A DNA stretch of 64,000 nucleotides. It comes from Patescibacteria group bacterium (GTDB lineage Bacteria; Patescibacteriota; Minisyncoccia; Moranbacterales; UBA2206). The notes beneath the pieces are model-generated. The model was given only the letters and a program-made list of their open reading frames with translations, made no database searches and was not told the DNA's origin. Below are positions 17,524 through 64,000 of this stretch, piece by piece. The DNA is taken from contig JAKLIG010000004.1 of NCBI GenBank assembly GCA_022709735.1, forward strand, positions 240-64,239, in the 5' to 3' direction. The translations under genes and the position numbers were made by a program. The first letter of the stretch is position 1; each line of letters starts with the position of its first letter.

Positions 17524-17577
17524 AACATTCTCACATTCCCTGCCTGCCGGCAGGCAGGTGCAGAATATCAGAATGTT
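17524..17577. repeat. Palindromic repeat element E1: aacattctca / perfect 20-nt palindrome CCTGCCTGCCGGCAGGCAGG (17539..17558) / tcagaatgtt
   Basis: Inverted termini plus central palindrome; core shared with E2 (34984..35003) and degenerate copies at 38836..38848, 54935..54950 and 62454..62475. Confidence 0.8.
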
Positions 17578-17595
17578 ATTTCTATAAAACAAAAC

Positions 17596-17784
17596 TCAAA
17601 CATTGCGATTTCTAAACCAGACATAAGTCACGAGAGCGAAAATCAAAACGATTGAAATTGAAAGCATCGCAAATGGTTCGACCCCGCTTAACTTTTCTGT
17701 GAGCCAGGAAAAATATGCTGGCAAATAAATATTGATTAGTTTGCCGTAAAATTCGGAAGTTATTTGAATAATTTTTTCTGACAT
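17596..17784 (-). CDS. Small membrane protein (62 aa)
   Basis: ORF with two hydrophobic segments. Confidence 0.4.
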   Translation of the reverse strand: MSEKIIQITSEFYGKLINIYLPAYFSWLTEKLSGVEPFAMLSISIVLIFALVTYVWFRNRNV

Positions 17785-17791
17785 AAAAGAA

Positions 17792-18223
17792 TTATTTTAT
17801 TTTAAACTCTATTTCATTCTCCTTTTTCCATTTTTCAATTTTGTAGTATTTTTCAATATCGCCAGCTTTATGAATAAATTTATGGACAGGTTTAATTTCA
17901 TCAATATTCTCAACTACATATTGCAATCCGTCGATTTTTCGCGCTTCTTCCTCGGCAACATCAACTTCATATACATAGATTTTTCTTTGTGAATCAAATA
18001 AATTAGGATTTTCAAAAGCAACAGTTTTATTGTCCGTATCAATACGAGTAGAACCATTTGGCTTTGCCGCCATTATAAGAGCATAAGCGTAGTCAGGAGT
18101 TAAATATATCGCTTCCAATGTTTCGTCTTTTGGAACAACAACATCTTCACAAGATTGAGCTTGATTTTTTTTAATATTTATTTCGTCCAGATCTTCCCTT
18201 TTAGAACCATGATAAAGTTTCAT
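17792..18223 (-). CDS. Hypothetical protein (143 aa)
   Basis: ORF only. Confidence 0.45.
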   Translation of the reverse strand: MKLYHGSKREDLDEINIKKNQAQSCEDVVVPKDETLEAIYLTPDYAYALIMAAKPNGSTRIDTDNKTVAFENPNLFDSQRKIYVYEVDVAEEEARKIDGLQYVVENIDEIKPVHKFIHKAGDIEKYYKIEKWKKENEIEFKIK

Positions 18224-18232
18224 ATAAAAAAA

Positions 18233-19141
18233 CTATTTTATCTTCCCTAAAATATTATCCAACTCTTCTTTCGAATAGTATTCAATCACAATCTGGCCGC
18301 CGCCGCCGGATTTTTTTATTTTTACTTTTGTTCCAAGAACGCCAGTAAGTTCGTCTTCCAAACTTTTAATTTCCGGATCAACTGCAATGTTTCTTTTGTG
18401 GGTGCGCACGGAAACTTCCTTAGTTTTGTCTTCCGTTTGGCGCACTGTCAAACCATTTTTGATTATGAGTTCATAAAAAGCTCTTTGTTTTTCAGGATTC
18501 GGAATTGCCAAAAGCAATTTGGCATGTCCTTCCGTAATTTTTCCTTCCGTCAGCGCTTTTTGAATTTCTATCGGCAAATTCAAAAGTCGAATTTTGTTGG
18601 CTACTGCGCTTCGGCTTTTCCCAAGTTTCTTAGCGACTTCATCTTGCGTAAGCCCGAATTCATTCGTAAGTTTGATGTATGATTTTGCTTCTTCAATTAA
18701 ATTCAAATCTTGTCTCTGGATATTTTCCACAATTGCCAGTTCCAATTTTTGTTGATCATCGGTTTCTCGAATAATGGCCGGGACTTTCAAAAGTCCGGCA
18801 ATTTTCGCCGCTTGAAAACGACGCTCTCCAGCAATGATTTCAAATTGACCACCGACTTTGCTCACTACTATCGGCTGGATTATTCCGTGTTCTTTTATCG
18901 AATCCGCCAGTTCGTTTAATTTCGCTTCGTCAAAAAATTTTCTTGGCTGTTGAGGATTAGGAATGATGCTAGAAATTTCTATTTCAACGATACTCTTACT
19001 TTCGTCTTTCTTGTCGTCTCTCGCCGAAATTGAAGATTTGCTTCCAAAATAATTAAAATCCTCTTCTGGTTTGTCAATTTTTTTATTTTTTTGAGGAATT
19101 AATGAGGACAATCCCCGGCCTAGACCATAATTCTGTGCCAT
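18233..19141 (-). CDS. parB: Chromosome partitioning protein ParB
   Basis: ParB box IQPIVV...GERRFQAAKIAGL; HTH GLTQDEVAKKLGKSRSAVANKIRLL. Confidence 0.9.
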   Translation of the reverse strand: MAQNYGLGRGLSSLIPQKNKKIDKPEEDFNYFGSKSSISARDDKKDESKSIVEIEISSIIPNPQQPRKFFDEAKLNELADSIKEHGIIQPIVVSKVGGQFEIIAGERRFQAAKIAGLLKVPAIIRETDDQQKLELAIVENIQRQDLNLIEEAKSYIKLTNEFGLTQDEVAKKLGKSRSAVANKIRLLNLPIEIQKALTEGKITEGHAKLLLAIPNPEKQRAFYELIIKNGLTVRQTEDKTKEVSVRTHKRNIAVDPEIKSLEDELTGVLGTKVKIKKSGGGGQIVIEYYSKEELDNILGKIK

Positions 19142-19160
19142 AAATTTAATTTTTTAATTT

Positions 19161-19952
19161 TTATATTGTAAAATCTTTTTTATTATTATTTTTCTCCATC
19201 TCCACTATTTCTTTTGCCAAATTTTTATACGCCCGCGCGCCTTTGGAAAGCGAATCAAAACTCAAAATAGATTTTCCAAAACCAGGCGCTTCCGCCAAAC
19301 GAATTGAACGCGGAATGATTGAATCAAAAACATGACCGGGAAAATGATCTTGAACTTCTTTGACAACTTGGCGCGCCAACCGATTTCTTTTGTCATACAT
19401 TGTGAGAAGCGCTCCCATAACTTTGAGTTCCGGCTGAAGATTTTCTCTTACTAAATCAATCGTATTTAAAAGTTGGCTTAATCCCTCCAATGCAAAATAT
19501 TCTGTCTGCACAGGAATAATTATTTCATCGCTTGCAACCAGCCCATTAATTGTGAGAAGTCCAAGACTCGGCGGAGAATCAATAATTATATAATCGTAAT
19601 TAGTTCTGATTTCACGAAGAACATTGTATAGCCTAAATTCTCGATTATCCAAATGCACCAGTTCAATTCCCGCGCCCGCCAAATCTTGCGAGGCCGGAAT
19701 AAGATCATGACCGAAAGTTTCTGTGCGCATAATTATTTTTGAAGGATGTTCGCCTAAAATCATTGAATGATACAGACTTTTTCCGATTTCCCTGATATTC
19801 AGTCCGAGTCCCGAAGAAGCATTTCCTTGCGGATCAAGATCCACTAGCAAAACAAACTTGCCTAACTCCGCTAGATAGGTCGCCAAGTTTATTGCCGAGG
19901 TAGTTTTCCCTACCCCGCCCTTTTGGTTGACGAGTGAAATAATTTTCGCCAT
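19161..19952 (-). CDS. parA: Chromosome partitioning ATPase ParA/Soj
   Basis: Deviant Walker A KIISLVNQKGGVGKTT; start set at MAKIIS (19952), because the track's longer ORF would overlap the tRNA gene. Confidence 0.9.
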   Translation of the reverse strand: MAKIISLVNQKGGVGKTTSAINLATYLAELGKFVLLVDLDPQGNASSGLGLNIREIGKSLYHSMILGEHPSKIIMRTETFGHDLIPASQDLAGAGIELVHLDNREFRLYNVLREIRTNYDYIIIDSPPSLGLLTINGLVASDEIIIPVQTEYFALEGLSQLLNTIDLVRENLQPELKVMGALLTMYDKRNRLARQVVKEVQDHFPGHVFDSIIPRSIRLAEAPGFGKSILSFDSLSKGARAYKNLAKEIVEMEKNNNKKDFTI

Positions 19953-19998
19953 AATGATTAAGTCTATTATACTATAAATGTATCTTATGACAAAATAT

Positions 19999-20082: not shown

Positions 20083-20089
20083 CAAAATT

Positions 20090-26928: not shown

Positions 26929-27557
26929 AAATTTTTATTAATTATTTTAAAAACTTCTCTTAAATTAACCGCTCTAAAATCAAAATTGCCTTTGCCTGAA
27001 TATTTATGCCTTCCTTCCTTTCTGCCTAATAAAATTGTTACAACACTAGGAATTTTTTTCTTCACATTTTCGACGCTTTCCAAACGATCGTCAATAAAAT
27101 AAACAATTTCATTTTTTTTAATCAGATTCTTTATTATCTTCGATTTAAGACCGCTGGTTGAAATTGACTTTTCGAAATATTTATTTATTCCTGAATTTTT
27201 AATTTTTGTTTCTTGGAATCCAATTTTCGGAAAAGAAATTATATATAAATCTTTTTTTGAAAATCTATTGACAAATTTATAAACATCTTTAAAAATATAT
27301 TTCCTGGTGTTTTTTATAAAATTAGTTATATTTTTTTCTATTTTTCTGGCATTGATTGGAAAATTTTTGCCAATTTCCCTCACATGCATTTTCGAATTAT
27401 ATTTTTTGAAACTTTTATTTTTGTTAGCTGGATAATTATAATAATACTTATCATAAATTTTTTCATTGATTCCGTAAGATTTAAAAATTTTCTTGTAATC
27501 AATGACAAATTCCCTAGTATCAAATAACACGTCATCGAAATCTATAAAGATTTTCAT
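26916..27557 (-). CDS. HAD-superfamily hydrolase-like protein
   Basis: HAD motif I FIDFDDVLFDT and motif IV YFIDDR; start overlaps the upstream gene by 4 nt (translational coupling). Confidence 0.55.
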   Translation of the reverse strand: MKIFIDFDDVLFDTREFVIDYKKIFKSYGINEKIYDKYYYNYPANKNKSFKKYNSKMHVREIGKNFPINARKIEKNITNFIKNTRKYIFKDVYKFVNRFSKKDLYIISFPKIGFQETKIKNSGINKYFEKSISTSGLKSKIIKNLIKKNEIVYFIDDRLESVENVKKKIPSVVTILLGRKEGRHKYSGKGNFDFRAVNLREVFKIINKNLCAE

Positions 27558-29241: not shown

Positions 29242-29325
29242 GCGACTCTAATTTACGAATTAACACTCGAATTATTCGAATGAATTCGAGTCATTCGGGT
29301 GAAGATTCGCATCATTCGAGTCGCT
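29242..29325 (+). repeat. 83-nt hairpin-forming intergenic repeat, copy B (ATTCGAGT-type); its last bases overlap the leuS stop codon
   Basis: ~84% identity to 13615..13697, same orientation. Confidence 0.8.
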
Positions 29326-32195
29326 TAAATAACAACATTTATAAGTCTTCCTTTTACAAAAATAAATTTTTTGATTTTTTTATCTAAAATATAATTTTTG
29401 ATTTTTTCCGATTCCATTATAATCTTTTTTGCTTCAACTTCTGAAATATCGGCGCTTACTTTTATTTTATCGCGCACTTTACCATTAATTTGCACAACCA
29501 TTTCGATTTCTTCGTCCTTTATGAGTTTTGGATCATATTTTGGCCAAGATTCATTAAAGATTGCTTTCTTATTTCCCAGTTGGCTCCATAACTCTTCGGA
29601 TATATGCGGAGCGAAAGGACTCAAGAGAAGTAAGAAGTAAGAATAATGAAGCAAGCTTATTTTTTCTTCTTTTTCAAATGCATTGGCCAAAATCATAAGC
29701 GAGCTAATCGCTGTATTAAATCTCATCGCTTCTATATCTTCAGTAACTTTTTTAATAGTCTTGTGAACTAAGGTGTCGAGTTTTGTATTTTGATTATTCG
29801 GATTTTGAATTTTATTTTGTAATTTCCAAACCCGTTCAAGAAATCTATAAATCCCTACAATCCCTTTTGTCTGCCAAGGTTTCATATCTTCCAGTGGTCC
29901 CATAAACATTTCGAAACACCGAAGCGAATCAGCCCCGAATTGACTCACAACATCATCCGGGTTGACCACATTGCCCTTGGATTTTGACATCTTTGTTCCG
30001 TCTTCCGCCAAAATTATCCCCTGATGGCGCAGTTTCAAAAATGGCTCGTCAAAATTCAGATAACCTAAATTATGCAAGACTTTTGTGAAAAATCTGGCAT
30101 AAAGAAGATGAAGAACGCTGTGCTCCGCTCCGCCGACATAGAGATCGACTGGTAGCCATTTTTCAAGATTTTTTTCCGAAGCAAATTCTTTTTTATTTTT
30201 CGGGTCGCTATAGCGAAGATAATACCAGCTTGAACAAACAAAAGTATCCATCGTGTCTGATTCCCGACTGGCTTTTCCTCCACAATTCGGACACTTCACA
30301 TTTTGGAATTTTTTACTGTATTTTAGCGGCGATTCTCCAGTCGGTTTGAAATCCACATCATCCGGCAAAACTACCGGCAAATCTTTTTCCGGCACTGGCC
30401 ATGCGCCCTGCCCGTCGAAGCCTTGGCGAAGTCGGGCGCATTTCTCGCAATAAATAATTGGAATTGGCGCGCCCCAATATCGTTGCCTTGAAACTAACCA
30501 ATCGCGTAGCTTGTAGTTTATTTTCTTCTGTCCTAATTTATTTTTTTCAAGCCACGCTGTTAATTTTTCGCGTGCTTGTTCGGAAGTAAGCCCGTCATAC
30601 TTTTCAGAATTAATTAGAAATCCATCAGCAACAAAAGCCATTAAATTAAATAATGAAAAATCATGCACATCTTTCGGCCTTAATTTCCCAAGCCTATCAG
30701 CCTCTGTTTTTTTAAACTTTAAAATACTTTCGGGAGTAAAGGCGCTAAATTCAGTATTCTCTAATTTATTCGTTATTTTTTCTCCATCATAACAACCGAA
30801 ATCAATATGAAATTTACCATTATCAGCTACATATAATTCAAATCTTTCGTCAGGATTTTTTTTAATTTCAAAACTTTCTTTTTTAAAATAATCTTTCCAA
30901 AATTCAATTTCATTTTTTTTAACCTGTATATCAACATCTACATGACTTCGAGTTATCATGCCATAAGCAATATCTAACCCCAAGCCACCATCAAAAATTA
31001 TTTTTTTATTATTTTCTTTAGCAAATTTAACAATTTTTTTAGCAAAACTAAAAATTTCCGAAGTTAAACTATCCGGTTTATCAAAAGCAATAACTGCTTT
31101 TATTGGCAATTTATATTTCTTTGCAAATTCAAAATCCCGTTCATCGTGAGCTGGAACGGCCATCACTGCGCCTGTGCCATATTGCGATAAAACATAATCA
31201 GCCACATAAAGTGGCAATGCTTCGCCATTAAAAGGATTGATAACTTTTATCCCCTTGAGCTCCACTCCCGTTTTGACTTTTGCTTCCATTCGATCAAGGT
31301 CAGTTTTTTTCTTTGTTTCCGCTAAGTATTTTTTTATTTCTTCATAATTCTTAATTCTTTCTTCACACTTCTTTATTATTTCATGTTCCGGCGCGACAAC
31401 CACATAAGTCATCCCGAAGACCGTGTCTATCCTTGTGGTATAAATTTCAATAAAATCATTCGAGTCTTCGATCTGCATTTTTAATTGTGTCCCTTCTGAT
31501 TTTCCAATCCAATTTTGTTGAAGTATTTTTGTTGACTGTGGCCAATCAATTTTTTCTAGTCCGCTTAACAAGCCAGAAGTTTTTCCCCTGTCCTCGATAA
31601 AATCAGTGATACGAAAAAACCACTGTTCCAAATCTTTTTGCGCCACTTCTGATTCGCAACGCTCGCATTTTCCATCCACGACTTGTTCATTGGCCAAAAC
31701 AGTCTGGCACTTCGGACACCAATTAACTTTCGCTTTCTTTTTATATGCCAAACCGTTTTTATAAAAAAGAAGAAAAAGCCACTGCGTCCATTTATAATAT
31801 TTCTGATCTGATGAATTGACTTCGCGCGACCAATCGTAAGAAAAACCCATTGAATTAATTTGGCGCTTGAAAGTTTCTATCGCTTTTTGAGTCGTTTTCT
31901 TTGGATGAATCCCGGTCTTTATCGCATAATTTTCCGCCGGTAGCCCGAAAGCATCAAAACCTTGCGGATGAAGCACATTTTTCCCATTCATTCGAAGATA
32001 ACGAGAATATATGTCAGTCGCCGTATATGACTCCACATGCCCGACATGAAGCCCTTCTCCGGACGGATAAGGAAACATGTCTAAAATAAAGCTTTTTTTC
32101 TGTTTTGAGCTATCTTGGGCCTTGCATAAATCAAGGTTTTTCGCCCAAAATTTCTGCCATTTAACTTCGATTTCCTTAGGGTTATATTTGTCCAT
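29325..32195 (-). CDS. leuS: Leucyl-tRNA synthetase carrying a ~150-aa insertion (aa ~375-522) with a nucleotidyltransferase-like signature inside the editing (CP1) region
   Basis: HIGH-region FPYPSGEGLHVGHV; KMSKS; editing-domain blocks TTRIDTVFGMTYVVVAPEH and GTGAVMAVPAHDERDFEFAKKY; insert contains IIFDGGLGLDIAYGMITRSHVDVDIQV. Confidence 0.9.
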   Translation of the reverse strand: MDKYNPKEIEVKWQKFWAKNLDLCKAQDSSKQKKSFILDMFPYPSGEGLHVGHVESYTATDIYSRYLRMNGKNVLHPQGFDAFGLPAENYAIKTGIHPKKTTQKAIETFKRQINSMGFSYDWSREVNSSDQKYYKWTQWLFLLFYKNGLAYKKKAKVNWCPKCQTVLANEQVVDGKCERCESEVAQKDLEQWFFRITDFIEDRGKTSGLLSGLEKIDWPQSTKILQQNWIGKSEGTQLKMQIEDSNDFIEIYTTRIDTVFGMTYVVVAPEHEIIKKCEERIKNYEEIKKYLAETKKKTDLDRMEAKVKTGVELKGIKVINPFNGEALPLYVADYVLSQYGTGAVMAVPAHDERDFEFAKKYKLPIKAVIAFDKPDSLTSEIFSFAKKIVKFAKENNKKIIFDGGLGLDIAYGMITRSHVDVDIQVKKNEIEFWKDYFKKESFEIKKNPDERFELYVADNGKFHIDFGCYDGEKITNKLENTEFSAFTPESILKFKKTEADRLGKLRPKDVHDFSLFNLMAFVADGFLINSEKYDGLTSEQAREKLTAWLEKNKLGQKKINYKLRDWLVSRQRYWGAPIPIIYCEKCARLRQGFDGQGAWPVPEKDLPVVLPDDVDFKPTGESPLKYSKKFQNVKCPNCGGKASRESDTMDTFVCSSWYYLRYSDPKNKKEFASEKNLEKWLPVDLYVGGAEHSVLHLLYARFFTKVLHNLGYLNFDEPFLKLRHQGIILAEDGTKMSKSKGNVVNPDDVVSQFGADSLRCFEMFMGPLEDMKPWQTKGIVGIYRFLERVWKLQNKIQNPNNQNTKLDTLVHKTIKKVTEDIEAMRFNTAISSLMILANAFEKEEKISLLHYSYFLLLLSPFAPHISEELWSQLGNKKAIFNESWPKYDPKLIKDEEIEMVVQINGKVRDKIKVSADISEVEAKKIIMESEKIKNYILDKKIKKFIFVKGRLINVVI

Positions 32196-32741: not shown

Positions 32742-32760
32742 TTTACAAATTCAATTTTGT

Positions 32761-32862
32761 AATTTTTAATTTTGTAATTTTTAAATAAATTCTAATTTCT
32801 AATGTTTAAAAATTTAGATTTGAGATTTATTTATAAAATTAAAAATTCAAAAATTAAAAATT
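32761..32862. repeat. 102-nt AT-rich intergenic repeat, copy 1 (between atpD stop and atpC start)
   Basis: Identical to 36053..36154 except for about 3 substitutions. Confidence 0.85.
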
Positions 32863-32873
32863 TTTCTAGAAAT

Positions 32874-34301
<1,428 letters not shown>

Positions 34302-34307
34302 TTAATT

Positions 34308-34353
34308 ATTGAATATTGATTAATAAAAAATAATTTAATAATCAATATTCAAT
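34308..34353. promoter_or_regulatory. Perfect 15-bp inverted repeat (attgaatattgatta ... taatcaatattcaat, 16-nt spacer) in the divergent atpD / small-ORF control region, abutting a minus-strand ttgact -35 box (34354..34359)
   Basis: Read directly from the sequence. Confidence 0.5.
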
Positions 34354-34365
34354 AGTCAATTTTTG

Positions 34366-34434
34366 CTTTGTTTTAGCCAAATATCCGCTGATTAGGATTT
34401 GGCATTTGACTTTTTCACAATTTTATGATATCAT
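34366..34434 (+). promoter_or_regulatory. Conserved upstream element (34366..34400, shared with 37781..37815) plus promoter for small ORF P1: -35 ttgact (34406..34411), 17-nt spacer, extended -10 TGaTATCAT (34426..34434); RBS aaaaggagagg precedes the ATG
   Basis: Identical 35-nt block ctttgttttagccaaatatccgctgattaggattt at both loci; both are followed by ttgactttt. Confidence 0.6.
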
Positions 34435-34492
34435 CCAAAGTCAACTTAACAACTCAATACAAATAAACGTCTGATGAAAAGGAGAGGCTAGA

Positions 34493-34843
34493 ATGAAAAA
34501 AAGTTATTATGTATTAACTATTATGAAGGTTCCACGTAAGGATGTTGTAGGAAGCGTAGCAAATCGTAATTTTCGGTTCGATATAATGGGAATTGATAAA
34601 TCTTCCGGAAAAATTGAACGATTTTCATTCAGTTCAGAAAGAATTGTAGCATTACAATGCAATAATTGTTCTTCCGAAGATTTCATTAGAATTTCCATTT
34701 TAAACTTCCTGCAAGACTTCGGGCTTCAAATCGTTTCCTCCGAAACGATCAAGGAAATTTGGATGGATAGGTATGAAATTTTTGTATATAAACATTTTCT
34801 CATATCTAATTCTCCTGTTTCCCTGAAAGACATTACAGAGTAG
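34493..34843 (+). CDS. Small hypothetical protein P1 (116 aa), antisense insert between atpG and atpD
   Basis: Strong promoter and SD; no recognisable domain. Confidence 0.55.
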   Translation: MKKSYYVLTIMKVPRKDVVGSVANRNFRFDIMGIDKSSGKIERFSFSSERIVALQCNNCSSEDFIRISILNFLQDFGLQIVSSETIKEIWMDRYEIFVYKHFLISNSPVSLKDITE

Positions 34844-34874
34844 ACGCTAAAAAGTTGTGCCAGCAAGTAGCTGG

Positions 34875-34917
34875 AAAAAACCACTGATTCCGAACCTTGG
34901 ATGACGTGGCTTTTTTG
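34875..34917 (+). terminator. Terminator of P1: aaaaaaccactgattccgaaccttggatgacgtggcttttttg; homologous to the P2 terminator
   Basis: Imperfect hairpin followed by a T-tract; motif ccaCTGATTcc. Confidence 0.5.
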
Positions 34918-34948
34918 TTTTCTTTTTTATAAAAGAACTCCTATTTTC

Positions 34949-35033
34949 GTCATCCTGAACGCAGTGAACCTTTTTTGAGATTCCCTGCCTGCCGGCAGGC
35001 AGGTTCGCTCTGCTCAGAATGACGATTATTATT
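34949..35033. repeat. Palindromic repeat element E2: gtcatcctgaacgcag...ctgctcagaatgac with inner gaacc/ggttc stem and the perfect CCTGCCTGCCGGCAGGCAGG core (34984..35003)
   Basis: Termini shared with E4; core shared with E1; lies between convergent P1 and atpG, so it could serve as the atpG terminator. Confidence 0.8.
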
Positions 35034-35069
35034 TTGATTTTCAATTTTCTAAAAGCTATAAGCTAAAAG

Positions 35070-36029
35070 CTAATTTTCTAACGCCGCTCTTCCTGCTGAA
35101 ATTTCCGCGATCTCCTGCGTAATCTTCATCTGCCTAATTTGATTATACGCCAGCGTGAGATCCATCGCCATTTCTTCCGACGCTTCCGTCGCATTTTTCA
35201 TTGCAATCATCTGGGCTGATTCTTTGGACGCATTGGATTCCAGAATCGCATGATAAACCTGCATTTCAATGAGACGCGGAATAATATCCTTCAAAACTTC
35301 TATCGGGCTTGGTTCTATCTTATATTCCACTATCGGTTCAGAAAGTCCGTATTCTTTGGCCAAAACATCCATCTCGGCAATTTGCTTTTCCAAATCAATT
35401 TTTGATAGTGGCAAAATTTGGCGAACTTTTGTCTGTTGATTTATCGTTGAGACATAATCCGTATAAAAAATAACAACTTTGTCATATTTTTTCGCCAGAT
35501 ATTCTTGAATGACAATTTTTCCAATCGCCCTGACATCATCAATTTTTGGCAGATATGCCAGATCATTAAACGAGGCAATAATTTCATTTCCAGCTTTTCG
35601 AATGGCAACTTCTCCTTTTTTTCCGATGGTTATAAAATCAATTGCTAAATCTTTATTAGAAATTTTGGATTCTAGTTTTTTCGTTCCGATTCGATTTATT
35701 TTTAATTTTTCTGGATTATCCAATTCTTCTTTTATCTTTCTGGCTATTTGCGAATTGAATGATCCGCAAAGTCCGCGATTAGAAGTTATCACAATTGCCA
35801 AAATTCTTTTCACCTCACGAACTTCCAAAAGCCCTTCCTGATTTTTTTCAAACGAGCGGGCTAGATTAGTCAGAATGCTCCAAGCGCTGTGAGCATACGG
35901 CCGAATTGCCAAAACAGACGCAATTGCGCGCCGCATTTTTGCCGCACTCACCATTTCCATCGCCCGCGTAATTTTCCCGGTGTTTTTGATGGACTTTATT
36001 CGCCTTCTAATTTCTTTGCCACTTGCCAT
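35070..36029 (-). CDS. atpG: F-type ATP synthase gamma subunit
   Basis: N-terminus MASGKEIRRRIKSIKNTGKITRAMEMVSAAKMRRA; C-terminus ...AEISAGRAALEN. Confidence 0.9.
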   Translation of the reverse strand: MASGKEIRRRIKSIKNTGKITRAMEMVSAAKMRRAIASVLAIRPYAHSAWSILTNLARSFEKNQEGLLEVREVKRILAIVITSNRGLCGSFNSQIARKIKEELDNPEKLKINRIGTKKLESKISNKDLAIDFITIGKKGEVAIRKAGNEIIASFNDLAYLPKIDDVRAIGKIVIQEYLAKKYDKVVIFYTDYVSTINQQTKVRQILPLSKIDLEKQIAEMDVLAKEYGLSEPIVEYKIEPSPIEVLKDIIPRLIEMQVYHAILESNASKESAQMIAMKNATEASEEMAMDLTLAYNQIRQMKITQEIAEISAGRAALEN

Positions 36030-36052
36030 AAATTAATTACCAAAAATTTTAT

Positions 36053-36154
36053 AATTTTTAATTTTGTAATTTTTAAATAAATTCTAATTTCTAATGTTTA
36101 AAAATTTAGATTTAAGTTTTATTTATAAAATTAAAAATTCAAAAATTAAAAATT
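36053..36154. repeat. 102-nt AT-rich intergenic repeat, copy 2 (between atpA stop and atpG start)
   Basis: Near-identical to 32761..32862. Confidence 0.85.
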
Positions 36155-36155
36155 C

Positions 36156-37664
36156 TTAGTTGTTATTCTCATATACTTCTTTGAATTCCTTAATAGCTTT
36201 CTCTAATTTAGCAACGACATCATCATTTAATTCTTTTTTATCAGCAATTAATTTCAAAACATCTTTCGCGCTGGAATACATATATTTCTGAAAATCTTCT
36301 TCCCATTTTTTTATTTTTTCCACTGCGGTGTCATCTAAAAATCCATTTGTGAGAGCATAAAGAATTGCCACCTGATTTTCCATTGCCATCGGTTCGTATT
36401 GACCTTGTTTCAAAACTTCAACGGTTCGTCTTCCTCTTTCAATTTGTTTCCTTGTATTTTCATCCAGGTCTGATCCGAATTGCGCAAAAGCTTCGAGTTC
36501 TCTAAATTGCGCCAAATCTAATCGAAGTTTTCCGGCTACTTTTTTCATCGCTTTTGTTTGCGCTGATGAACCAACACGAGAAACGCTGAGGCCAACATTC
36601 AGCGCCGGACGAACTCCTTTATAAAACAAATCTGATTCCAAATAAATTTGTCCGTCAGTTATGGAAATAACATTAGTTGGGATGTAGGCCGAAACATCGC
36701 CGGCTTGCGTTTCAATAATTGGAAGAGCCGTGAGTGATCCTCCGCCAAAATCTTTGTTCATTTTCGCACTTCGCTCCAAAAGTCTGGAGTGAAGATAAAA
36801 AATATCTCCCGGATAAGCTTCGCGTCCTGGTGGGCGTCTTAGAATCAAAGAAATTTGGCGATAAGCCCAAGCGTGCTTGGAAAGATCATCATAAATTACG
36901 AGAACATCTTTGCCTTTGTCCATAAAATATTCTCCGAGCGCGCAACCGGAATATGGAGCGATAAAAGAAAATGCCGCTGGATCAGATGCGCCCGCCAAAA
37001 CCACTGTCGTATATTCCATCGCACCTTTCTTTTCGAGTTCCGCGACAATTCTTGCAATTTTAGATTCTTTTTGGCCAATCGCCACATAAATGCAAATCAT
37101 GTCCTGTCCCTTTTGATTGATAATCGCATCCACCGCAATGGCAGTTTTCCCAGTTTGGCGATCGCCGATAATCAATTCTCTTTGCCCTCGACCGATTGGA
37201 ATCATTGAATCAATCGCTTTTATTCCTGTTTGCACTGGTTGATTGACCGATTCGCGAGAAATTACGCCTGAAGCAATTTTTTCAATCGGATAATTTTTTT
37301 CTGTTTTAATGTCCCCCTTGCCGTCTATTGGTTCTCCCAGCGGATTAACCACTCTTCCAATCATAGATTCTCCGACTGGAATGGAAAGAATTTTTCCGGT
37401 TGATTTTACCGTGTCTCCTTCTTTGATGTTTTCATAGTTTCCCAAAATCATGGCTCCGATTTGCCCTTCTTCCAAGTTTAGTGCCACGCCGTAAATGCCA
37501 CCAGAAAATTCAAGCATTTCCGATGCCATGCAATCCGAAAGCCCGGAAATTTTTGCTACGCCGTCTCCAATTTCAATAACCGTTCCAACTTTTTCGGTTT
37601 GCGTCTTGGCTTCAAAATTCTCAATTTGCTTTTTTAACTGGTCGATAATGTGGTTTTTGTTCAT
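36156..37664 (-). CDS. atpA: F-type ATP synthase alpha subunit
   Basis: Walker A GDRQTGKT; length 502 aa. Confidence 0.95.
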
Positions 37665-37780
37665 ATAAATTTAATTTTAAATTATAAATTTGAAATTTGA
37701 AATGAATTTTAAATGTTTTAATTCTTAATTTAGTAATTTAGCCTTGATTTAAAATTTCAAATTTAGCCTTTAAAATTTTC

Positions 37781-37849
37781 CTTTGTTTTAGCCAAATATC
37801 CGCTGATTAGGATTTAGGGGTTGACTTTTGAGGTGGTTTGTAATACACT
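37781..37849 (+). promoter_or_regulatory. Second copy of the conserved upstream element (37781..37815) plus promoter for small ORF P2: -35 ttgact (37821..37826), -10 candidate tacact (37844..37849); RBS taaggagg precedes the ATG
   Basis: Shares the 35-nt block and -35 context with 34366..34414. Confidence 0.55.
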
Positions 37850-37904
37850 TCAATGATTTAATTGAAAACAATTAACTAATAAAATTTTAATAAGGAGGTT
37901 ACTG

Positions 37905-38189
37905 ATGAGCGAATTAGTAGGAAAATTAATTGCTGTTCTTTTTTTAAAACCGGATTATGAGGGCAACTTAACAAAAGAAGCGATTCAGGGAAAAGTTGTA
38001 AAGGTGGAAAATAATTTGCTTTTCCTTACGGATGTTTTTAAATTAACAACCAACATGGGTATTAGGGCGGAAAGATGCTACGACCAAGTCATTAGCACTT
38101 GCTCATTATTATTCGTAAAGATGGAAATAATTCCAGATGATAGATTTTTTCGTTATCCTTACTTCGAAGATTTTCATTTACAAAGATAA
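37905..38189 (+). CDS. Small hypothetical protein P2 (94 aa), antisense insert between atpH and atpA
   Basis: Strong SD aaggagg 7 nt before the ATG; no recognisable domain; no clear similarity to P1. Confidence 0.55.
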   Translation: MSELVGKLIAVLFLKPDYEGNLTKEAIQGKVVKVENNLLFLTDVFKLTTNMGIRAERCYDQVISTCSLLFVKMEIIPDDRFFRYPYFEDFHLQR

Positions 38190-38214
38190 AAGCCCATTCC
38201 ATCTAAAACCGCTG

Positions 38215-38250
38215 ATTCCATATTATTTGGATGACGCGGTTTTCTTTTTC
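38215..38250 (+). terminator. Terminator of P2: aaaaccgctgattccatattatttggatgacgcggttttctttttc; homologous to the P1 terminator
   Basis: ccgc/gcgg stem followed by a T-tract; motif ccGCTGATTcc. Confidence 0.5.
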
Positions 38251-38276
38251 TCAATTTTTTAAAAGAACAAATTTTT

Positions 38277-38402
38277 TGTAGGGGTTTGATTCATCAAACC
38301 CGCCTCGTGTAGGGAATGCGTATACGCATTCCTGAATTTTCATTTCTTCGGAACGCATATATGCGTTCCCTACATTTGGGCTTGATAAATCAAGCCCCTA
38401 CA
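38277..38402. repeat. Nested palindrome cluster: four perfect 20-nt palindromes (gggtttgattcatcaaaccc 38282..38301; ggaatgcgtatacgcattcc 38313..38332; ggaacgcatatatgcgttcc 38350..38369; gggcttgataaatcaagccc 38378..38397) framed by tgtagggg...cccctaca, directly after the atpH stop
   Basis: Each palindrome verified by reverse-complementing it. Confidence 0.8.
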
Positions 38403-38819
38403 TTATTTCACCAGCATTTTCTTCAAATTATTCAACTGGTTTATCACACTTCCATCCAACACTTCATCCCCAACTTTTATAATAATTCCGCCTTTGATGT
38501 TCTCATCGATTTTATTTTCAACAACGACTTCCTTGGCTTTGTATTTACTTTTCAAAAAATCTGTTATTTTCTTAATCATACCGCTTTCCAGCTTTTCTCG
38601 CGAGACGACCTGCGCCGTTACTATGCCATTCTCCCGATCATATATTTCTTCAAATTTCGCTATGATATTTTTCTTGAATTTCAGCTGATTATTTTTCGCC
38701 AAAACTTTCACGAAATTTTCCATCACATTATCAATCTCCTTTTGAGATTTTTTTTCAGTCATTTCATATAAAGTTTTCGCGTATTGCGTGGCTGTTATTT
38801 TCATTCGTTTATTTGTCAT
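38403..38819 (-). CDS. atpH: F-type ATP synthase delta (OSCP) subunit
   Basis: Position between atpF and atpA; start placed at MTNKRMKITATQYAKTLYEM, because the track's longer ORF runs into repeat E3. Confidence 0.75.
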   Translation of the reverse strand: MTNKRMKITATQYAKTLYEMTEKKSQKEIDNVMENFVKVLAKNNQLKFKKNIIAKFEEIYDRENGIVTAQVVSREKLESGMIKKITDFLKSKYKAKEVVVENKIDENIKGGIIIKVGDEVLDGSVINQLNNLKKMLVK

Positions 38820-38895
38820 CCTGAACTTGCCATGCCTCGCCGGCAGGCGGGTTTCAGGATCTATCATTGAGATGCTGAAATAAATTCAGCATGAC
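38815..38895. repeat. Palindromic repeat element E3: gtcatcctgaac...gatgctgaaataaattcagcatgac; fills the atpF-atpH intergenic region and overlaps the atpH start codon
   Basis: Termini related to E5; inner ccatgcctcgccggcaggcggg is a degenerate CCTGCC..GGCAGG core. Confidence 0.75.
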
Positions 38896-38898: not shown

Positions 38899-39384
38899 TT
38901 ATTTAATTGCCCGATTTATTAAATCTTTATCCTTTTCGCTATCCATTTTCTCCGCGATTATTTTTTCCGTCGCCGATACAACCAGTCCGGCAATTTCTGA
39001 TTTTACCTCTGTTAGCATTTTTACTTTTTCTTGCTCAATGCTTTTCTTGGCTTCTTCTATCATTTTCACATTTTGTTCTTTCGCTTCCACAATTATATTT
39101 TCCGCATTTTTCTTAGCTTCGCCTTCTGATTTTTTGATTATTTCCTGCGCTTCTTTTCTGGCTTTCACCAAAACTTCTTTTTCCTTCTCCGTTATTTCCT
39201 CCAATTTTTTAGAAGCTTCTTCGCTGTCTTTGAGACCCTTTTCAATTTTTTTCGTCCGATCATTTAGCATCTTGAGAACTGGCTTATAAGCAAACTTCCA
39301 TAAAATCAAAAGCAGAATCAAAAAGTTCACAATTTGAGCAATTAATAATCTGACATCGATACCTAATTTTGATAATAATTCCAT
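38899..39384 (-). CDS. atpF: F-type ATP synthase subunit b
   Basis: N-terminal TM helix IAQIVNFLILLLILWKF, then long charged coiled coil. Confidence 0.85.
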   Translation of the reverse strand: MELLSKLGIDVRLLIAQIVNFLILLLILWKFAYKPVLKMLNDRTKKIEKGLKDSEEASKKLEEITEKEKEVLVKARKEAQEIIKKSEGEAKKNAENIIVEAKEQNVKMIEEAKKSIEQEKVKMLTEVKSEIAGLVVSATEKIIAEKMDSEKDKDLINRAIK

Positions 39385-42390: not shown

Positions 42391-42444
42391 GTCATCCTGA
42401 ACGAAGTGAAGGATCTCGAGATTCTTCGCTATGCTCAGAATGAC
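42391..42444. repeat. Palindromic repeat element E4: gtcatcctgaacgaagtgaaggatctcgag / attcttcgctatgctcagaatgac, a near-perfect 54-nt hairpin between metG stop and tatD start
   Basis: The two halves are reverse complements with a few mismatches. Confidence 0.8.
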
Positions 42445-54934: not shown

Positions 54935-54998
54935 TCCTGCCTCCTCGGCAGACAACTTATTCTTATTTGATTGTCTTTCAGGATCCAATCCCTGAAAG
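54935..54998. repeat. Degenerate CCTGCC..GGCAG core copy (cctgcctcctcggcag, 54935..54950) and 8-bp hairpin ctttcaggatccaatccctgaaag (54975..54998) upstream of the giant gene
   Basis: Read directly from the sequence. Confidence 0.4.
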
Positions 54999-55298: not shown

Positions 55299-56588
55299 TT
55301 ATTTCGTAGTTCGTAAAACTATTTTTCTTCTTATTAAACTGCCTTTTGGCAAAATTTTATCAAACTCAAAATAATATAATTTTTCATGTCCACCGTGCGC
55401 TTCTTGGACTTCTTCTTTTTTGTGGTTTAATATTTTCACAATTTTTACCGGAATATTTTTCTCTGGTGTTATAGCTTCAATTTTGTCATTTTTGAAAACA
55501 GCGTTATGGATTTTCAAAATATTTAATTTATTTTGGACAGATTTAAAATCTGTCCCTACATTATTATTTAAAACTTCCCCGACAAATTCCCAGCTTCCTT
55601 TCTTCATTTTACCGCCAAAATTATGCGGAGGCTCGTCCCCCAAAAGAAACCCTGTCCAATATCCGCGGTTGGTAAGATTATCCAATTCTTTTTTTTGCTC
55701 TAAGATTATTTTTCTAATTTCCCCTTTTGATTTTTTCTGTGCTATCGCATCAATTACTTTTCGATAAGCGCGCGTTGCAACCGCTACATAATAGGCGCTC
55801 TTCGCCCGCCCTTCAATCTTGAAGCTGGTAACGCCCGCTTTGATTAGCTCATCAATATACTCAATCAAATTCATATCAAAACTATTGAAAAAATATGTCC
55901 CGTGCCGATCTTCTTCGATATCCATCTCGTATTTATTCAGCTTCTCTTTTATTCTTACTTCTTTATTCTTACTTCCTACTTCTTCATATTCCCACCGGCA
56001 AGGTTGGGTGCAATCGCCAAGATTAGCACTACGATTGTTCATCCATTTCGAAAGAATGCACCGCCCCGAATAGCTCATGCACATTGCGCCGTGGATAAAA
56101 TATTCAAGCTCGATATCTTTGACTTTTTTCCTGATTTCTTTTATTTCAGAAAGACTAACTTCCCGCGCTAAAATTATTCTTTTGACTCCCGTGTCTCGCC
56201 AAAATTTCACCGCTTCAAAATTAGTGGCATTGGCTTGCGTCGAAAGATGAATGTCGGTTTTTGGCAGATATTTTTTCACTAAATTTATTATCCCCGGATC
56301 ACTTACAATTACTGCATTGACACCAACTTTGCTTAAGAATTTTAAATGCTTTTTAACTTTTTCCAAATGTTGATTATGCGCATAAATATTGAGCGTCACA
56401 TAAATTTTTTTGCCAAGATTATGAGCATATTCAACCGCCTCTAGAATATCTTTTTCGCTAAATTCATTAATTCGCACCCGAAGCGAAAAATCCGGCACAC
56501 CCAAATACACCGCGCCCGCGCCATATTGAAAAGCGTATTTCATTTTAGAAAAACTCCCTGCTGGTGATAACAATTCTACTTTTTTCAT
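55299..56588 (-). CDS. Peptidase U32 family protein (YegQ/RlhA-like)
   Basis: N-terminus MKKVELLSPAGS...; FIHGAMCMSYSGRC; C-rich LGDCTQPCRW. Confidence 0.8.
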   Translation of the reverse strand: MKKVELLSPAGSFSKMKYAFQYGAGAVYLGVPDFSLRVRINEFSEKDILEAVEYAHNLGKKIYVTLNIYAHNQHLEKVKKHLKFLSKVGVNAVIVSDPGIINLVKKYLPKTDIHLSTQANATNFEAVKFWRDTGVKRIILAREVSLSEIKEIRKKVKDIELEYFIHGAMCMSYSGRCILSKWMNNRSANLGDCTQPCRWEYEEVGSKNKEVRIKEKLNKYEMDIEEDRHGTYFFNSFDMNLIEYIDELIKAGVTSFKIEGRAKSAYYVAVATRAYRKVIDAIAQKKSKGEIRKIILEQKKELDNLTNRGYWTGFLLGDEPPHNFGGKMKKGSWEFVGEVLNNNVGTDFKSVQNKLNILKIHNAVFKNDKIEAITPEKNIPVKIVKILNHKKEEVQEAHGGHEKLYYFEFDKILPKGSLIRRKIVLRTTK

Positions 56589-56618: not shown

Positions 56619-56674
56619 GTCATCCCGAACTTGTTTCGGGATCTCATTAGATGCTGAAACAAGTTCAGCATGAC
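56619..56674. repeat. Palindromic repeat element E5: gtcatcccgaacttgtttcgggatctcattagatgctgaaacaagttcagcatgac, between tgt stop and the U32 gene start
   Basis: 19-nt inverted termini (2 mismatches); related to E3. Confidence 0.8.
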
Positions 56675-59753: not shown

Positions 59754-59821
59754 GATTGTTTTAGATATTTTATTATTTGTTTTACCCTCTTATAATACTA
59801 AATTTTGCGATTTTTATCAAC

Positions 59822-61013: not shown

Positions 61014-61041
61014 TTCTTTCTCCTTTTTCCTTCGGTTTTTG

Positions 61042-61383: not shown

Positions 61384-61424
61384 AATGCCCCCTTATATAT
61401 TATTAAAGTTTAATAACTTTGTTT

Positions 61425-61454
61425 TTTAAAAAAACAAAAACCTAGCGTTCTAGG
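61425..61454 (-). terminator. Rho-independent terminator (cctagaacgctagg, then T-run on the minus strand) after gene 61494..62390
   Basis: Hairpin plus A-run on the plus strand. Confidence 0.5.
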
Positions 61455-61493
61455 CTTCTCAATATTTAAGCATACAATTAAATTCTAGTCAAA

Positions 61494-62390
61494 TTAAAGA
61501 GGCTTTTTTATTTTTTTTCGGAGGAAATATAGAAAAGCAAAATGCAAAACAATTGCAATAATTATTGAGCCATACAGAAACCATTCAAACTCCCGACATT
61601 TGTCAAAATAGTACCAGAATGCCACCGCCAGAATTGTCCAAAGCAACGCAATTTTCCAACCGTATTCTTCGCGCTTATAATTTTTTCTGGCGTCCAGCAC
61701 AAAAATAATTGCAAAAATCACAAGTACTAAAATCCAAACCCATTTCGGCCAGCTTTGACATCGGTTTTCCAATCCGGCAATTTTTTCATTTTCGCCAGCT
61801 TGATTTTCTGCTCCTGCCACTCCGGAAACAACTCTGCCTTCTTCGGACAAAATTTCACTTTCCGTTGTGGCAGTTGTCCCGCCTTCGGCTATTTCTGATT
61901 CAATTTTAAAATCGATATCGAAATTTGTTTCCAACCCTTGGTATTCATTGCCAGCATCCTCGTCAAATTTTATTTTAATTTTATACCGCTCACTTTCTTC
62001 TGTCTCCAGTCTATCTACATAAAGTTCTTCTTCATCCGCTTCTTCCAGCGTCCAGCGATCACCTTCACCGCCGATTCGATAATTATCGTCTGAATCACGA
62101 ATAACATATAATTTCAATTTTTTTGCTAATTTTTTGTCGCCATTAACATCGAAGGTAAAATATAAATTAGTATCGTCTGTCGTGCTTTCATTTTCCACCC
62201 TAATTGTTTTTGACTGTTCCCAGCCGGGATAAATATTGCTTTCATCAAAAATATCATCGCCATCAACATTCTCTCCGCTTAAAAATTCCACATCAATCTC
62301 ATCATCCGCCAGCGCAAAATTTGCCGGCACAATCAGAAAGATTGCTCCTAAAAAAATTACCGCTAAATTTTTGATAAAATATTTTTTCAT
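61494..62390 (-). CDS. Secreted acidic protein with three C-terminal TM helices
   Basis: Signal peptide MKKYFIKNLAVIFLGAIFLIVPANFALA; acidic domain; C-terminal TM helices. Confidence 0.55.
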   Translation of the reverse strand: MKKYFIKNLAVIFLGAIFLIVPANFALADDEIDVEFLSGENVDGDDIFDESNIYPGWEQSKTIRVENESTTDDTNLYFTFDVNGDKKLAKKLKLYVIRDSDDNYRIGGEGDRWTLEEADEEELYVDRLETEESERYKIKIKFDEDAGNEYQGLETNFDIDFKIESEIAEGGTTATTESEILSEEGRVVSGVAGAENQAGENEKIAGLENRCQSWPKWVWILVLVIFAIIFVLDARKNYKREEYGWKIALLWTILAVAFWYYFDKCREFEWFLYGSIIIAIVLHFAFLYFLRKKIKKPL

Positions 62391-62441
62391 TATTTCCTCT
62401 ATTTAAGAATTTATACTTTTAAAACATTCTGCTCCTTGATT

Positions 62442-64000
62442 TTATTTTTCATCCTTGCCTGCCGATGAGGCAGGTTCTTTTTTTGCAGATTTATCGTCAG
62501 ACTTTTCTTCTTCTTTTTTGCTTTCCTCTTTCTTTTTTTCTTCCTTTTTCTCCTCATCTTTCTTTTCTTCCGCTTTTACTTCTTCTTTTTTATTTTCCTC
62601 TATTTTAGCATCTTCCTTTTTTTCGTCATCTTTTTTTATTTCTTCTTTGTCTTTGACTCCTTTATCTTCTTTGATTCCCTCTGTTTTTGCTTCCTCTTTC
62701 TTTATTTCTTCCTGCGTCCCGCTTTTATCTTCTTTGGTTTTATTTTCCTCAATTTTAGTTTCTTCTTTTATTTCAGAAACAACTTCTTCTTTTTCTTCTT
62801 TGGGCTCCTCTTCTTTCTTATTTTCTTCGGAAATATTTTCTTCTACTTCTGCTGTTTCGCTAATTCCTTCTTTTGAATCATTTTGTGAATCATCTCCAGC
62901 TTGCTGGTCATCTAAAACTTCCTCGCTAGAATTTGCTTCGGTCCCACCAGTTTCACTTACACTGTCAGAAACAGAATTATCATCATTCGAAATAGTGCCG
63001 TCAGTAGTATTATCGCTGGCGATATCTTCAACTGGAACTTCCGGATTTTCAACTATTTCGTCTGCTACCAGAACAACTTCTTCTATTTTTTCTTCTTTCA
63101 AAAGACCTAGGGATTTCAAAAAACTTTCTTTGCAAATCGGTTTTCCATCCTTGAAGCAAGCCTCTTTGTAATATTTTTGCATATCATCCAGATCATTGCT
63201 CGAATTATTTTTTTCTCCCGGCGTCGGCACTGGATCTACCCAATTGCCAACACCATCTGGAATTCTCGCGTATGATTTTCCTTGCACCGCATTTGAATAA
63301 TCATGACTATCAATTAAATTTCCCGCACTGTCATAAAGCTGAACTTCATCATCGCCGGTATTATTCAGATAAAAATCGGCATAATTTTCAATTACTAAAA
63401 ATCGATTAGATGAAGGATTGATTGTCGTGCTCCCCGTGTCACTGTGCGCTGAATCAATAAGTCTTCGATGAGAGGCTGGTCCTTGATTATCAGTGATAAA
63501 CCAATTATTAACATTTACTGGTTCTGTCCCATAATTATAGATTTCCACCATTTCATCAAGTCCTACTGCTGGATATGGCACAAATTCATTGAGAACTATC
63601 ATATAAGAAATTTCAAATTCGTCGCTCTCCTCGGAAGCAGTAAGCGAATGCGAATCGGTTGCCGTTATTTTTACCTTGCAACTGTCAGAAATATCTGTTG
63701 GCACTGTCCAAGAATAGCTTCCGTCATTATCTGTTCCAGTTGCAATATTCGTCCACGGATCACTATCGCAAGCATAATCAATATCAATTAACATTCCTGC
63801 GGTCGCCGAAGGATCAGCAGATGAAGCTGTCCAAGTTATATTGTGCGATGATCCAACTTGCCATTCATCCCCCAAAGATGGGCTGGAAATTGAGATTACG
63901 GGCGGAACCCAATATCCAAATGTGAAAATATTTCCATCTGAAATTGCGTTACTAGTATAAAAAGAATTTGTCCCAGAAACTTTAGTCATTCCAATAGCAA
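62442..64000 (-). CDS. Lamin-tail-domain (LTD) protein with K/E-rich low-complexity C-terminus; probably 5'-partial (the frame stays open past the tracked ATG to the window edge)
   Basis: NEFVPYPAVG...EIYNYG.EPVNVNNWFITDN...RIPDG...PTPGEKN; no signal peptide after the tracked Met. Confidence 0.55.
   Translation of the reverse strand, partial: AIGMTKVSGTNSFYTSNAISDGNIFTFGYWVPPVISISSPSLGDEWQVGSSHNITWTASSADPSATAGMLIDIDYACDSDPWTNIATGTDNDGSYSWTVPTDISDSCKVKITATDSHSLTASEESDEFEISYMIVLNEFVPYPAVGLDEMVEIYNYGTEPVNVNNWFITDNQGPASHRRLIDSAHSDTGSTTINPSSNRFLVIENYADFYLNNTGDDEVQLYDSAGNLIDSHDYSNAVQGKSYARIPDGVGNWVDPVPTPGEKNNSSNDLDDMQKYYKEACFKDGKPICKESFLKSLGLLKEEKIEEVVLVADEIVENPEVPVEDIASDNTTDGTISNDDNSVSDSVSETGGTEANSSEEVLDDQQAGDDSQNDSKEGISETAEVEENISEENKKEEEPKEEKEEVVSEIKEETKIEENKTKEDKSGTQEEIKKEEAKTEGIKEDKGVKDKEEIKKDDEKKEDAKIEENKKEEVKAEEKKDEEKKEEKKKEESKKEEEKSDDKSAKKEPASSAGKDEK

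Follow-up and report, generated by a model that had tools for sequence, protein, structure and literature searches.

The 64,000 nucleotides analysed here as a whole (the window; contig JAKLIG010000004.1, positions 240 to 64,239 of the forward strand) come from a Patescibacteria group bacterium of the order Moranbacterales and contain a set of long hairpin elements, E1 to E5, which lie at gene boundaries and are the subject of this report. The window has a G+C content of 36%, its proteins are identical to HRY82787–HRY82826 of a Candidatus Moranbacteria metagenome-assembled genome, and the same stretch was recovered by separate assemblies of two JGI digester metagenomes and of one Logan run. The gene content is of the housekeeping kind and includes relA/spoT, parAB, dxs, glmS, leuS, the atp operon, rsmI, metG, tatD, rluB, tgt, a U32 peptidase gene, recO, dprA and topA, and a search of the window against Rfam at gathering thresholds returned a single match, a tRNA. 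With the roughly 8 kb that continue beyond the window, 72 kb of this host genome could be read.

A preliminary description had proposed E1 to E5 as one family of repeats placed between genes. All five sequences are present where it located them, the flanking genes that it named (RelA/SpoT, atpG, atpF/atpH, metG/tatD, tgt/U32) are the right ones, and the placement at gene boundaries holds: E3, E4 and E5 stand between unidirectional genes, 2–6 nt past a stop codon, and E1 and E2 between convergent genes. No strand is assigned to the elements as wholes; their component units are stranded as given below.

Anatomy of the units and dimers

E4 (42391–42444) is an intact dimer of what we call type A, formed by a unit on the plus strand (42391–42415), the spacer TCGA and a unit on the minus strand (42420–42444). 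The metG stop codon lies 6 nt before it and the tatD start codon 6 nt after it, in the order TAA-TTTTTT-E4-GCTCTT-ATG. E5 (56619–56674) is an intact type-B dimer of a plus-strand unit (56619–56643), the spacer TCATTA and a minus-strand unit (56650–56674), situated 2 nt past the tgt stop codon and 30 nt ahead of the U32 peptidase start. E3 (38815–38895), a second type-B dimer, has a left unit (38815–38861) with a 22-nt GC-rich insertion (38830–38851) in its loop, a spacer (38862–38870) and a minus-strand right unit (38871–38895), and occupies the gap between the atpF stop codon (38899–38901) and the atpH start codon (38804). E2 (34949–35023) is a type-A dimer with its tags outside whose true end is at 35023 and not at 35033 as first reported. 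Its left unit is truncated (34949–34968) and followed by the filler CCTTTTTT (34969–34976), while the minus-strand right unit (34977–35023) consists of GAGATTC (34977–34983), a nested palindrome (34984–35003) and TTCGCTCTGCTCAGAATGAC (35004–35023). The element lies in a convergent setting, with atpG (stop at 35070) on one side and, on the other, an antisense ORF (open reading frame) of 116 aa.

One further copy, a type-B dimer with units identical to those of E5, is found about 4 kb past the end of the window (L123 4448–4506, equivalent to window positions of about 67885–67943), in frame within the gene for isoleucyl-tRNA synthetase (IleRS). Its spacer is free of stop codons, and the copy encodes CHAELVSASSEEIPKQVRDDNFC, 22 extra residues between the motifs NLSG and SVHL, a position at which the solved IleRS structure 8c8v has one residue.

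E2 to E5 are thus inverted pairs of 25-nt units with the tags outside. Each unit runs from an unpaired tag, YGTC, through a stem of 8 positions opening with AT, a 5-nt loop and a return stem ending in AT to a final C. The tag is CGTC or TGTC in all seven intact units and in the truncated left unit of E2, and GTC before the stem together with C after it is found in every intact unit. Two subtypes share this 8/5/8 geometry. Type B (E3, E5) joins GTC ATCCYGAA CTTGT TTCRGGAT C to GTC ATGCTGAA YTTRT TTCAGCAT C and has a Watson-Crick stem, and type A (E2, E4) joins GTC ATCCTGAA CGAAG TGAAGGAT C to GTC ATTCTGAG CNNAG CGAAGAAT C, with tandem G.A/A.G at stem positions 6–7 and a loop closed as C-GAA-G. 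Each of E2 to E5, like the IleRS copy, is a heterodimer in which a unit with a CC stem is joined to one with a TC or GC stem.

Several measures set these sequences apart from chance. E1 to E5 all fold far better than shuffled sequences (z from −4.1 to −7.7, the latter for E5), with both strands folding about equally. The terminus GTCATCCTGAAC, allowing up to two mismatches, has 12 matches in the window against 2.3 expected, a number reached by none of 100 shuffles, and 8 of the 12 are the two ends of E2 to E5. The arrangement GTC, 8-bp hairpin, C occurs four times in the window against 0.045 times in shuffles; three occurrences are units of E3 and E5, and the fourth (13663–13686) belongs to a TTCGA-rich repeat considered below and is not counted as a member. 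Type-B units taken alone form 8-bp/5-nt DNA hairpins, ((((((((.....)))))))) from the AT onward, at −6.7 to −7.3 kcal/mol and z of about −4.

Further evidence for the unit as the folding entity came from a scan of species-representative genomes across phyla with the pattern GTCATCCYGAAC-N30-60-TCAGMATGAC, which recovered at least 120 stretches; the counts on 230 units and 127 distinct dimers used here derive from the matches listed in that scan. At stem position 5 of the left unit the pair is T-A in 97 of 127 dimers and C-G in 23, and at position 3 of the right unit T-A in 58 and G-C in 48, a covariation that the search pattern does not force. Among type-A units, the stems ATCCTGAA/TGAAGGAT and ATTCTGAG/CGAAGAAT and the recombinants ATGCTGAG/CGAAGCAT and ATTCTGAA/TGAAGAAT all preserve both variable pairs. 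In the 127 distinct dimers A pairs solely with A and B solely with B, and the spacers, from about 2 to 35 nt long, are free to vary among copies with identical units. Of the 230 units, 155 have T and 52 have C immediately ahead of GTC; the two bases after the tail C are TC, TT, TA or TG in 198 of them, with CCA found in 7, the first tail C being imposed by the search. Membership of the family follows from this anatomy, and it is at the level of the unit that the hairpin is under selection.

E1 (17524–17577), between the convergent relA/spoT and a 143-aa ORF, stands apart. The grouping of all five sequences in one family holds for E2 to E5, which align with one another, and fails for E1 as a full copy: E1 aligns solely with the right unit and palindrome of E2, its ends are AACAT...ATGTT rather than the GTCAT...ATGAC once ascribed to it, and its tag has degenerated to TCAGAATGtt in place of TCAGAATGAC. 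It is a decayed monomer, a single type-A-like unit carrying the same 20-nt palindrome as E2 (here at 17539–17558).

Insertion history and nested palindromes

The history of the sites was examined in five related Moranbacteria (AtpA identity 86–89%). In all five, atpF and atpH lie 0–3 nt apart without E3, and in three they abut, for example as AAATAAATGAAAAT in L129; the same junction in the window reads TAA-ACT-E3-AAATAAACGA-ATG. Since the sister AtpH proteins are 133 aa long and begin MK(I/V)T, corresponding to the ATG at 38804, E3 is an insertion of 94 nt, and atpH truly starts at 38802–38804 on the minus strand, 10 nt outside E3, which gives a 133-aa product as in the sisters. The proposal that E3 supplies the atpH start is thereby refuted, and the 154-aa atpH ORF beginning at an ATG at 38867 inside E3 is an over-extension. 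Similarly, L129 lacks E4: there the metG stop codon and the tatD start codon overlap as TAATG. Neither type-A nor type-B units occur in 64 kb of the sisters L128–L130. A metagenome scan with the RluB-like protein of the window returned two short contigs, and the one examined (L126) was not syntenic.

The E2 site differs in this respect. In L137 a dimer orthologous to E2 lies 7 nt past atpG, with the palindrome at one mismatch and a partner truncated in the same way, and in L138 an intact type-A dimer without the palindrome occupies the site. E2 is older than E3 and E4 and common to the two closest relatives. The elements entered as insertions, since the orthologous sister sites are empty, and were then inherited vertically and decayed, as the truncated left unit of E2 and the lost tag of E1 show. 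At E3 the direct repeat AAATAAAC (38807–38814 and 38899–38906) is adjacent to the element on one side and 3 nt off on the other; this may be the duplicated old stop/start junction or a chance occurrence in AT-rich DNA.

The GC-rich palindrome CCTGCCTGCCGGCAGGCAGG, previously viewed as the core of the family, proves in alignments to be a 20–22-nt insertion into an otherwise normal unit. It occurs in two exact copies in the window against none expected. Set against E4 in an alignment, E2 proves to be the same dimer with a truncated left unit and exactly 20 nt more, namely CCTGCCTGCCGGCAGGCAGG at 34984–35003, which separates GCGAA from GAATC in the right unit. The alignment of E3 with E5 and with dimers of four other genomes likewise shows the same dimer plus 22 nt, all the others showing a 22-column gap; here the variant palindrome CCATGCCTCGCCGGCAGGCGGG (38830–38851) sits in the loop of the left unit and lengthens the unit hairpin. 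The units are themselves hit by a second, GC-rich palindromic element, which inserts where the loop meets the 3' stem. The CCTGCCTGCCGGCAGGCAGG form is found in none of the 120 or more loci listed from other genomes. The L138 orthologue of the E2 right unit (L138 4637–4672 against window 34977–35023) lacks the palindrome and has instead an 11-nt insertion, GCGGAGTCGAA, unrelated to it and placed at the same position, GCGAA|GAATC, as the palindrome in the window and in L137. These two independent insertions suggest a recurrent break point, which would coincide with the junction of the loop and the 3' stem in the folded unit.

Short hairpins resembling the nested palindrome also occur on their own. 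The pattern CTGCC-N1-7-GGCAG has six matches at four window sites against 0.05 expected. One site is a free-standing CTGCC-N5-GGCAG mini-hairpin (54937–54951) in the gap between a DUF1653 gene and a gene of 1436 aa, and another of the same form (62459–62473) falls in the final 11 codons of the LTD-domain gene (stop 62442–62444). Both places had been listed as degenerate cores (54935–54950 and 62454–62475). Each is a mini-hairpin rather than a GTCAT element, although the overlap of the second with the end of the LTD gene was correctly noted.

Other repeats share the intergenic space of this genome, mainly in the atp operon, which here is invaded at every junction and is compact in L128–L130. 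Antisense small-gene cassettes lie in the atpG-atpD and atpH-atpA gaps (34287–35069 and 37665–38402), in L137 (4426–4921) and in L138 (4583–5370), and are missing from L128–L130. The cassettes have in common a promoter-like block (in the window 34358–34414 and 37773–37829, 89% identical with a 29-nt exact core) and a terminator-like block (in the window 34897–34947 and 38227–38277). The ORFs that these blocks enclose are wholly unrelated: the window has one of 116 aa and one of 94 aa, L138 one of 135 aa, and L137 a zinc-ribbon-like one of about 63 aa. No family was found for any of the four in Pfam, nor for the two window ORFs in NCBIfam, PHROGs or PADLOC, the sole borderline match being TackOD1 (E 0.009) for the L137 ORF. 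The arrangement looks like a variable-cargo site between conserved genes, reminiscent of the minimal mobile elements of Neisseria.

A 113-nt AT-rich, internally palindromic repeat (32753–32865 and 36045–36157, 96% identical, with related sequences at 37673–37777 and 27285–27324) fills the atpD-atpC and atpA-atpG gaps, which measure 3–44 nt in L128–L130. Directly past the atpH stop codon are four GTAGGG-tagged hairpins in two nested inverted pairs (38278–38401), and one further GTAGGG hairpin lies inside the U32 peptidase gene (55535–55559, minus strand). Outside the operon, a 50-nt TTCGA-rich repeat with reiterated ATTCGAGT/ATTCGAAT motifs (13656–13705 and 29283–29332, 90% identical) has one copy close upstream of topA and another in the gap between leuS and the neighbouring gene, and may be a protein-binding array. 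One of its copies mimics a unit of the hairpin family and the second does not fold, and the repeat is not counted among its members.

Distribution across bacteria and the GIY-YIG genes

Dimers of the same kind occur at the 120 or more loci of the cross-phylum scan, in nearly all bacterial phyla. The hosts include Bacteroidota, Nitrospirota, Spirochaetota, Ignavibacteria, Chlorobi and Omnitrophota; Alpha-, Gamma- and Deltaproteobacteria, Campylobacterota and Bdellovibrionota; and Firmicutes, Verrucomicrobia, Planctomycetes, Deinococcota, Elusimicrobia, Melainabacteria and many lineages of the candidate phyla radiation. The family is therefore confined neither to the window, beyond which the IleRS copy also lies, nor to assemblies from metagenomes: cultured isolates are among the hosts, so an assembly artefact is excluded. 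The copies align as one family, and sequence-identical units are found beside unrelated genes in unrelated phyla. Viruses were considered as carriers and rejected, as 2.9 million viral contigs contained just 6 matches.

Among the loci listed, 52 dimers lie between unidirectional genes, 23 between convergent and 11 between divergent genes, often 2–30 nt past a stop codon, and 16 lie inside crude ORFs. Their orientation shows no bias with respect to transcription (28 same, 24 opposite) or to GC skew (37 against 34). In the host genome all five heterodimers (E2 to E5 and the IleRS copy) point the same way, which, given the lack of bias across phyla, is treated as chance.

In three of these loci an ORF of about 100 aa with the GIY-YIG domain PF01541 (E 1e-17 to 1e-18) was found. 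The ORF of Tissierella (L060) is bracketed by type-A dimers and that of Lutibacter (L013) flanked by type-B dimers. One Lutibacter unit, GTCATGCTGAATTTATTTCAGCATC, is identical at 25 of 25 positions to the right unit of E3, and another, GTCATCCCGAA-TTTAG-TTCGGGATC, has the stem of the E5 left unit and differs from it at two loop bases only. A search of the protein database with an Ssn-like profile gave at least 7994 matches, the best 120 of which are nearly all from Flavobacteriaceae.

These genes connect the elements to a characterised system. Single-domain GIY-YIG nucleases of about 94 aa (Ssn, cd10448) bind and cut hairpin motifs in single-stranded DNA only, and on one strand only; mutagenesis showed that the three bases ahead of the palindrome (GTC) govern cleavage and the C after it governs binding (PMC11893778). 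The motif of Neisseria, the NTS, is CGTCATTCCCGCGMAVGCGGGAATCYRG, and Ssn-related motifs (SRM) are present in many phyla (Chenal et al. 2025, Nat Commun 16:2388; PMC11893778), where they typically flank ssn genes; in Neisseria the Ssn system reduces the integration of transforming DNA (PMC11893778). The elements described here share with NTS and SRM the (C)GTC, the AT-initiated palindrome and the following C, are directional, multicopy and rare in genes, and flank small GIY-YIG genes in L013 and L060. They differ in that the published search string misses their AT-rich stems, in that the dimer arrangement is not discussed in PMC11893778, and in that no ssn gene lies in the 72 kb of the host genome.

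Identity and mode of action

The comparison with REP/BIME (repetitive extragenic palindromes and bacterial interspersed mosaic elements) or with the Rickettsia palindromic elements (RPE) that had been offered for E1 to E5 was right at the level of the family. The CGTC-tagged REPs have a CGTC or TGTC (or CCTC) tag, a stem of 8–9 bp from AT, a loop of 4–5 nt and the tail consensus CCA (Di Nocera, De Gregorio, Rocco 2013, BMC Genomics 14:522; PMC3733652). They occur mostly as head-to-head (HH) dimers with the tags outside, often as heterodimers, without a dedicated transposase, and are found close to the stop codon of the upstream ORF where neighbouring ORFs run in one direction or converge, sometimes in frame within genes, tRNA synthetases included; dRS3 of Neisseria and RPE-4 and RPE-6 of Rickettsia are placed in the same super-family (PMC3733652). 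The present elements match in tag, 8-position AT stem, 5-nt loop, HH heterodimers, variable spacers, gene-boundary sites and in-frame copies. In contrast, their tail is CTC, CTA or CTT; the published survey had four families in five phyla, mostly Alphaproteobacteria, and named neither candidate-phyla-radiation genomes nor two stem types; and it does not describe a nested GC-rich palindrome (PMC3733652). RPE are alike in that a short palindromic element is tolerated in frame in an essential gene (here IleRS, with 22 residues), and unlike in that most copies here are intergenic; the likeness is one of anatomy and placement. E2 to E5 are, in all probability, head-to-head heterodimers of CGTC-tagged REPs that are at the same time Ssn-related, NTS-like motifs.

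Taken as such, the elements would act as DNA, each unit folding alone whenever it becomes single-stranded in replication, in repair or in incoming transforming DNA. By analogy with the characterised system, a small single-domain GIY-YIG nuclease (Ssn) would bind the unit through the C after the stem, use the GTC tag for cutting and nick a few nucleotides 5' of the tag, so that a dimer with its tags outside would present one cleavable unit per strand. The elements would also be co-transcribed with the atp, metG-tatD and tgt-U32 operons, where, judging by their position, hairpins of −24 to −36 kcal/mol may part formerly coupled cistrons.

Several findings weigh against this identification. There is no consistent target-site duplication, E3 alone having a flanking direct repeat and E2, E4, E5 and the IleRS copy having none. 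Under standard DNA parameters type-A units alone fold no better than shuffles, and their hairpin would rest on the non-canonical G.A pairs and on covariation. No GIY-YIG ORF was detected in the window and its 8-kb extension or in the Moranbacteria loci fetched, in six-frame ORFs searched with a regular expression and a home-built profile, and in the host genome we infer the Ssn link by analogy. The published SRM string, HGTCWYN(0-2)YYVSBRHN(0-5)WNVSBRGN(0-2)RNCYNB, has no match in the window, since the stems here are AT-richer than those of its 29 source genomes and the string needs S, B or V at positions that are T or A in the units; it serves as a search heuristic built on those genomes and does not define the motif.

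The best-surviving alternative is that the elements are host regulatory RNA hairpins, that is, intercistronic stabilisers, attenuators or terminators acting in the mRNA, with the DNA level secondary. Four dimers do lie inside or at the ends of transcription units right after stop codons, their RNA folds are strong (−24.6 to −35.7 kcal/mol), and such a role has been proposed for REPs generally. The orthologous junctions of the sisters, however, work without elements, both strands fold about equally, orientation with respect to transcription is random, and one copy lies inside the IleRS coding sequence. The sense-strand 3' flanks of E3, E4 and E5 (AAATAAACGA, GCTCTTATG and ACAAAGAATC) contain no T-run of the kind that marks an intrinsic terminator. 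As identical units are also found by unrelated genes in unrelated phyla, we regard a primary role in RNA as improbable.

REPINs mobilised by a RAYT (REP-associated tyrosine transposase, of the IS200/IS605 type, Y1) offer the same architecture of two inverted hairpin units and a spacer; the dimers would then be non-autonomous, and a Y1 transposase encoded once in the genome would copy these transposons by way of single-stranded intermediates. Within-genome copies with common spacers do occur in other genomes (L006, L014, L060, L093). The cluster of GTAG-tagged hairpins at 38278–38401 represents the other REP super-family, usually tied to RAYT transposases, and a RAYT system may exist in the host genome. 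REPINs resemble the present dimers as inverted hairpin doublets with a spacer that are non-autonomous, vertically persistent and located between genes; they differ in their GTAG tag, their Y1 (HUH) transposase and their largely lineage-specific sequences (Bertels and Rainey 2011; PMC3116915), whereas the units here have the tag YGTC and are identical across phyla. CGTC repeats are without association to any tyrosine transposase gene (PMC3733652), none of the genes annotated in the window or in its extension has a transposase domain, and identical units bracket GIY-YIG genes rather than Y1 genes, all of which makes mobilisation by a RAYT very improbable. Least credible of all, to the point of being nearly negligible, is the reading as ordinary miniature inverted-repeat transposable elements, derived by deletion from a DDE-type insertion sequence whose terminal inverted repeats would be GTCAT...ATGAC: the inverted termini, the shortness of the elements and the AAATAAAC repeat flanking E3 would fit, and the lack of flanking repeats at the other copies, the autonomous covarying hairpin in each half, the freely varying spacers between identical units and the failure to find a parent insertion sequence all speak against it.

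As CGTC-tagged REPs, the elements belong to a family whose existence, dimer form, gene-boundary location and intragenic copies are already described. New are the host group, for which no earlier description of the elements in Moranbacteria was found in the literature, the division of the stems into two subtypes of one geometry, and the nested palindrome, for which, together with the common insertion point inside the unit, the literature yielded no counterpart. Annotation is affected directly: gene callers stretch atpH into E3 and translate the 22-residue, element-derived insert of IleRS, and cistrons that are translationally coupled in relatives are parted here by strong hairpins.

A palindrome-type second element landed three times inside CGTC units. 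It is conceivable, though rather unlikely, that the CGTC hairpin itself is a specific insertion target and that the elements are still active in this reduced candidate-phyla-radiation genome. Besides these nested insertions and the break point suggested by E2 and L138, units identical at 25 of 25 positions in Moranbacteria, Bacteroidota and other phyla are grounds for considering it, as are new copies placed exactly where stop and start codons overlapped, or in frame within IleRS. If true, a horizontally travelling Ssn-hairpin module would be actively remodelling the operons of organisms for which a dependence on DNA uptake is presumed.

Genomes of the candidate phyla radiation are tiny, and the organisms are believed to rely on the uptake of DNA. 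Assignment of E2 to E5 to the CGTC-tagged, Ssn-related motifs would place unexplained hairpins of this group in a family with a biochemically characterised partner, Ssn, whose system has been proposed to control the recombination of incoming DNA. The elements may thus be relevant to DNA uptake in a genome whose window also carries dprA and recO.

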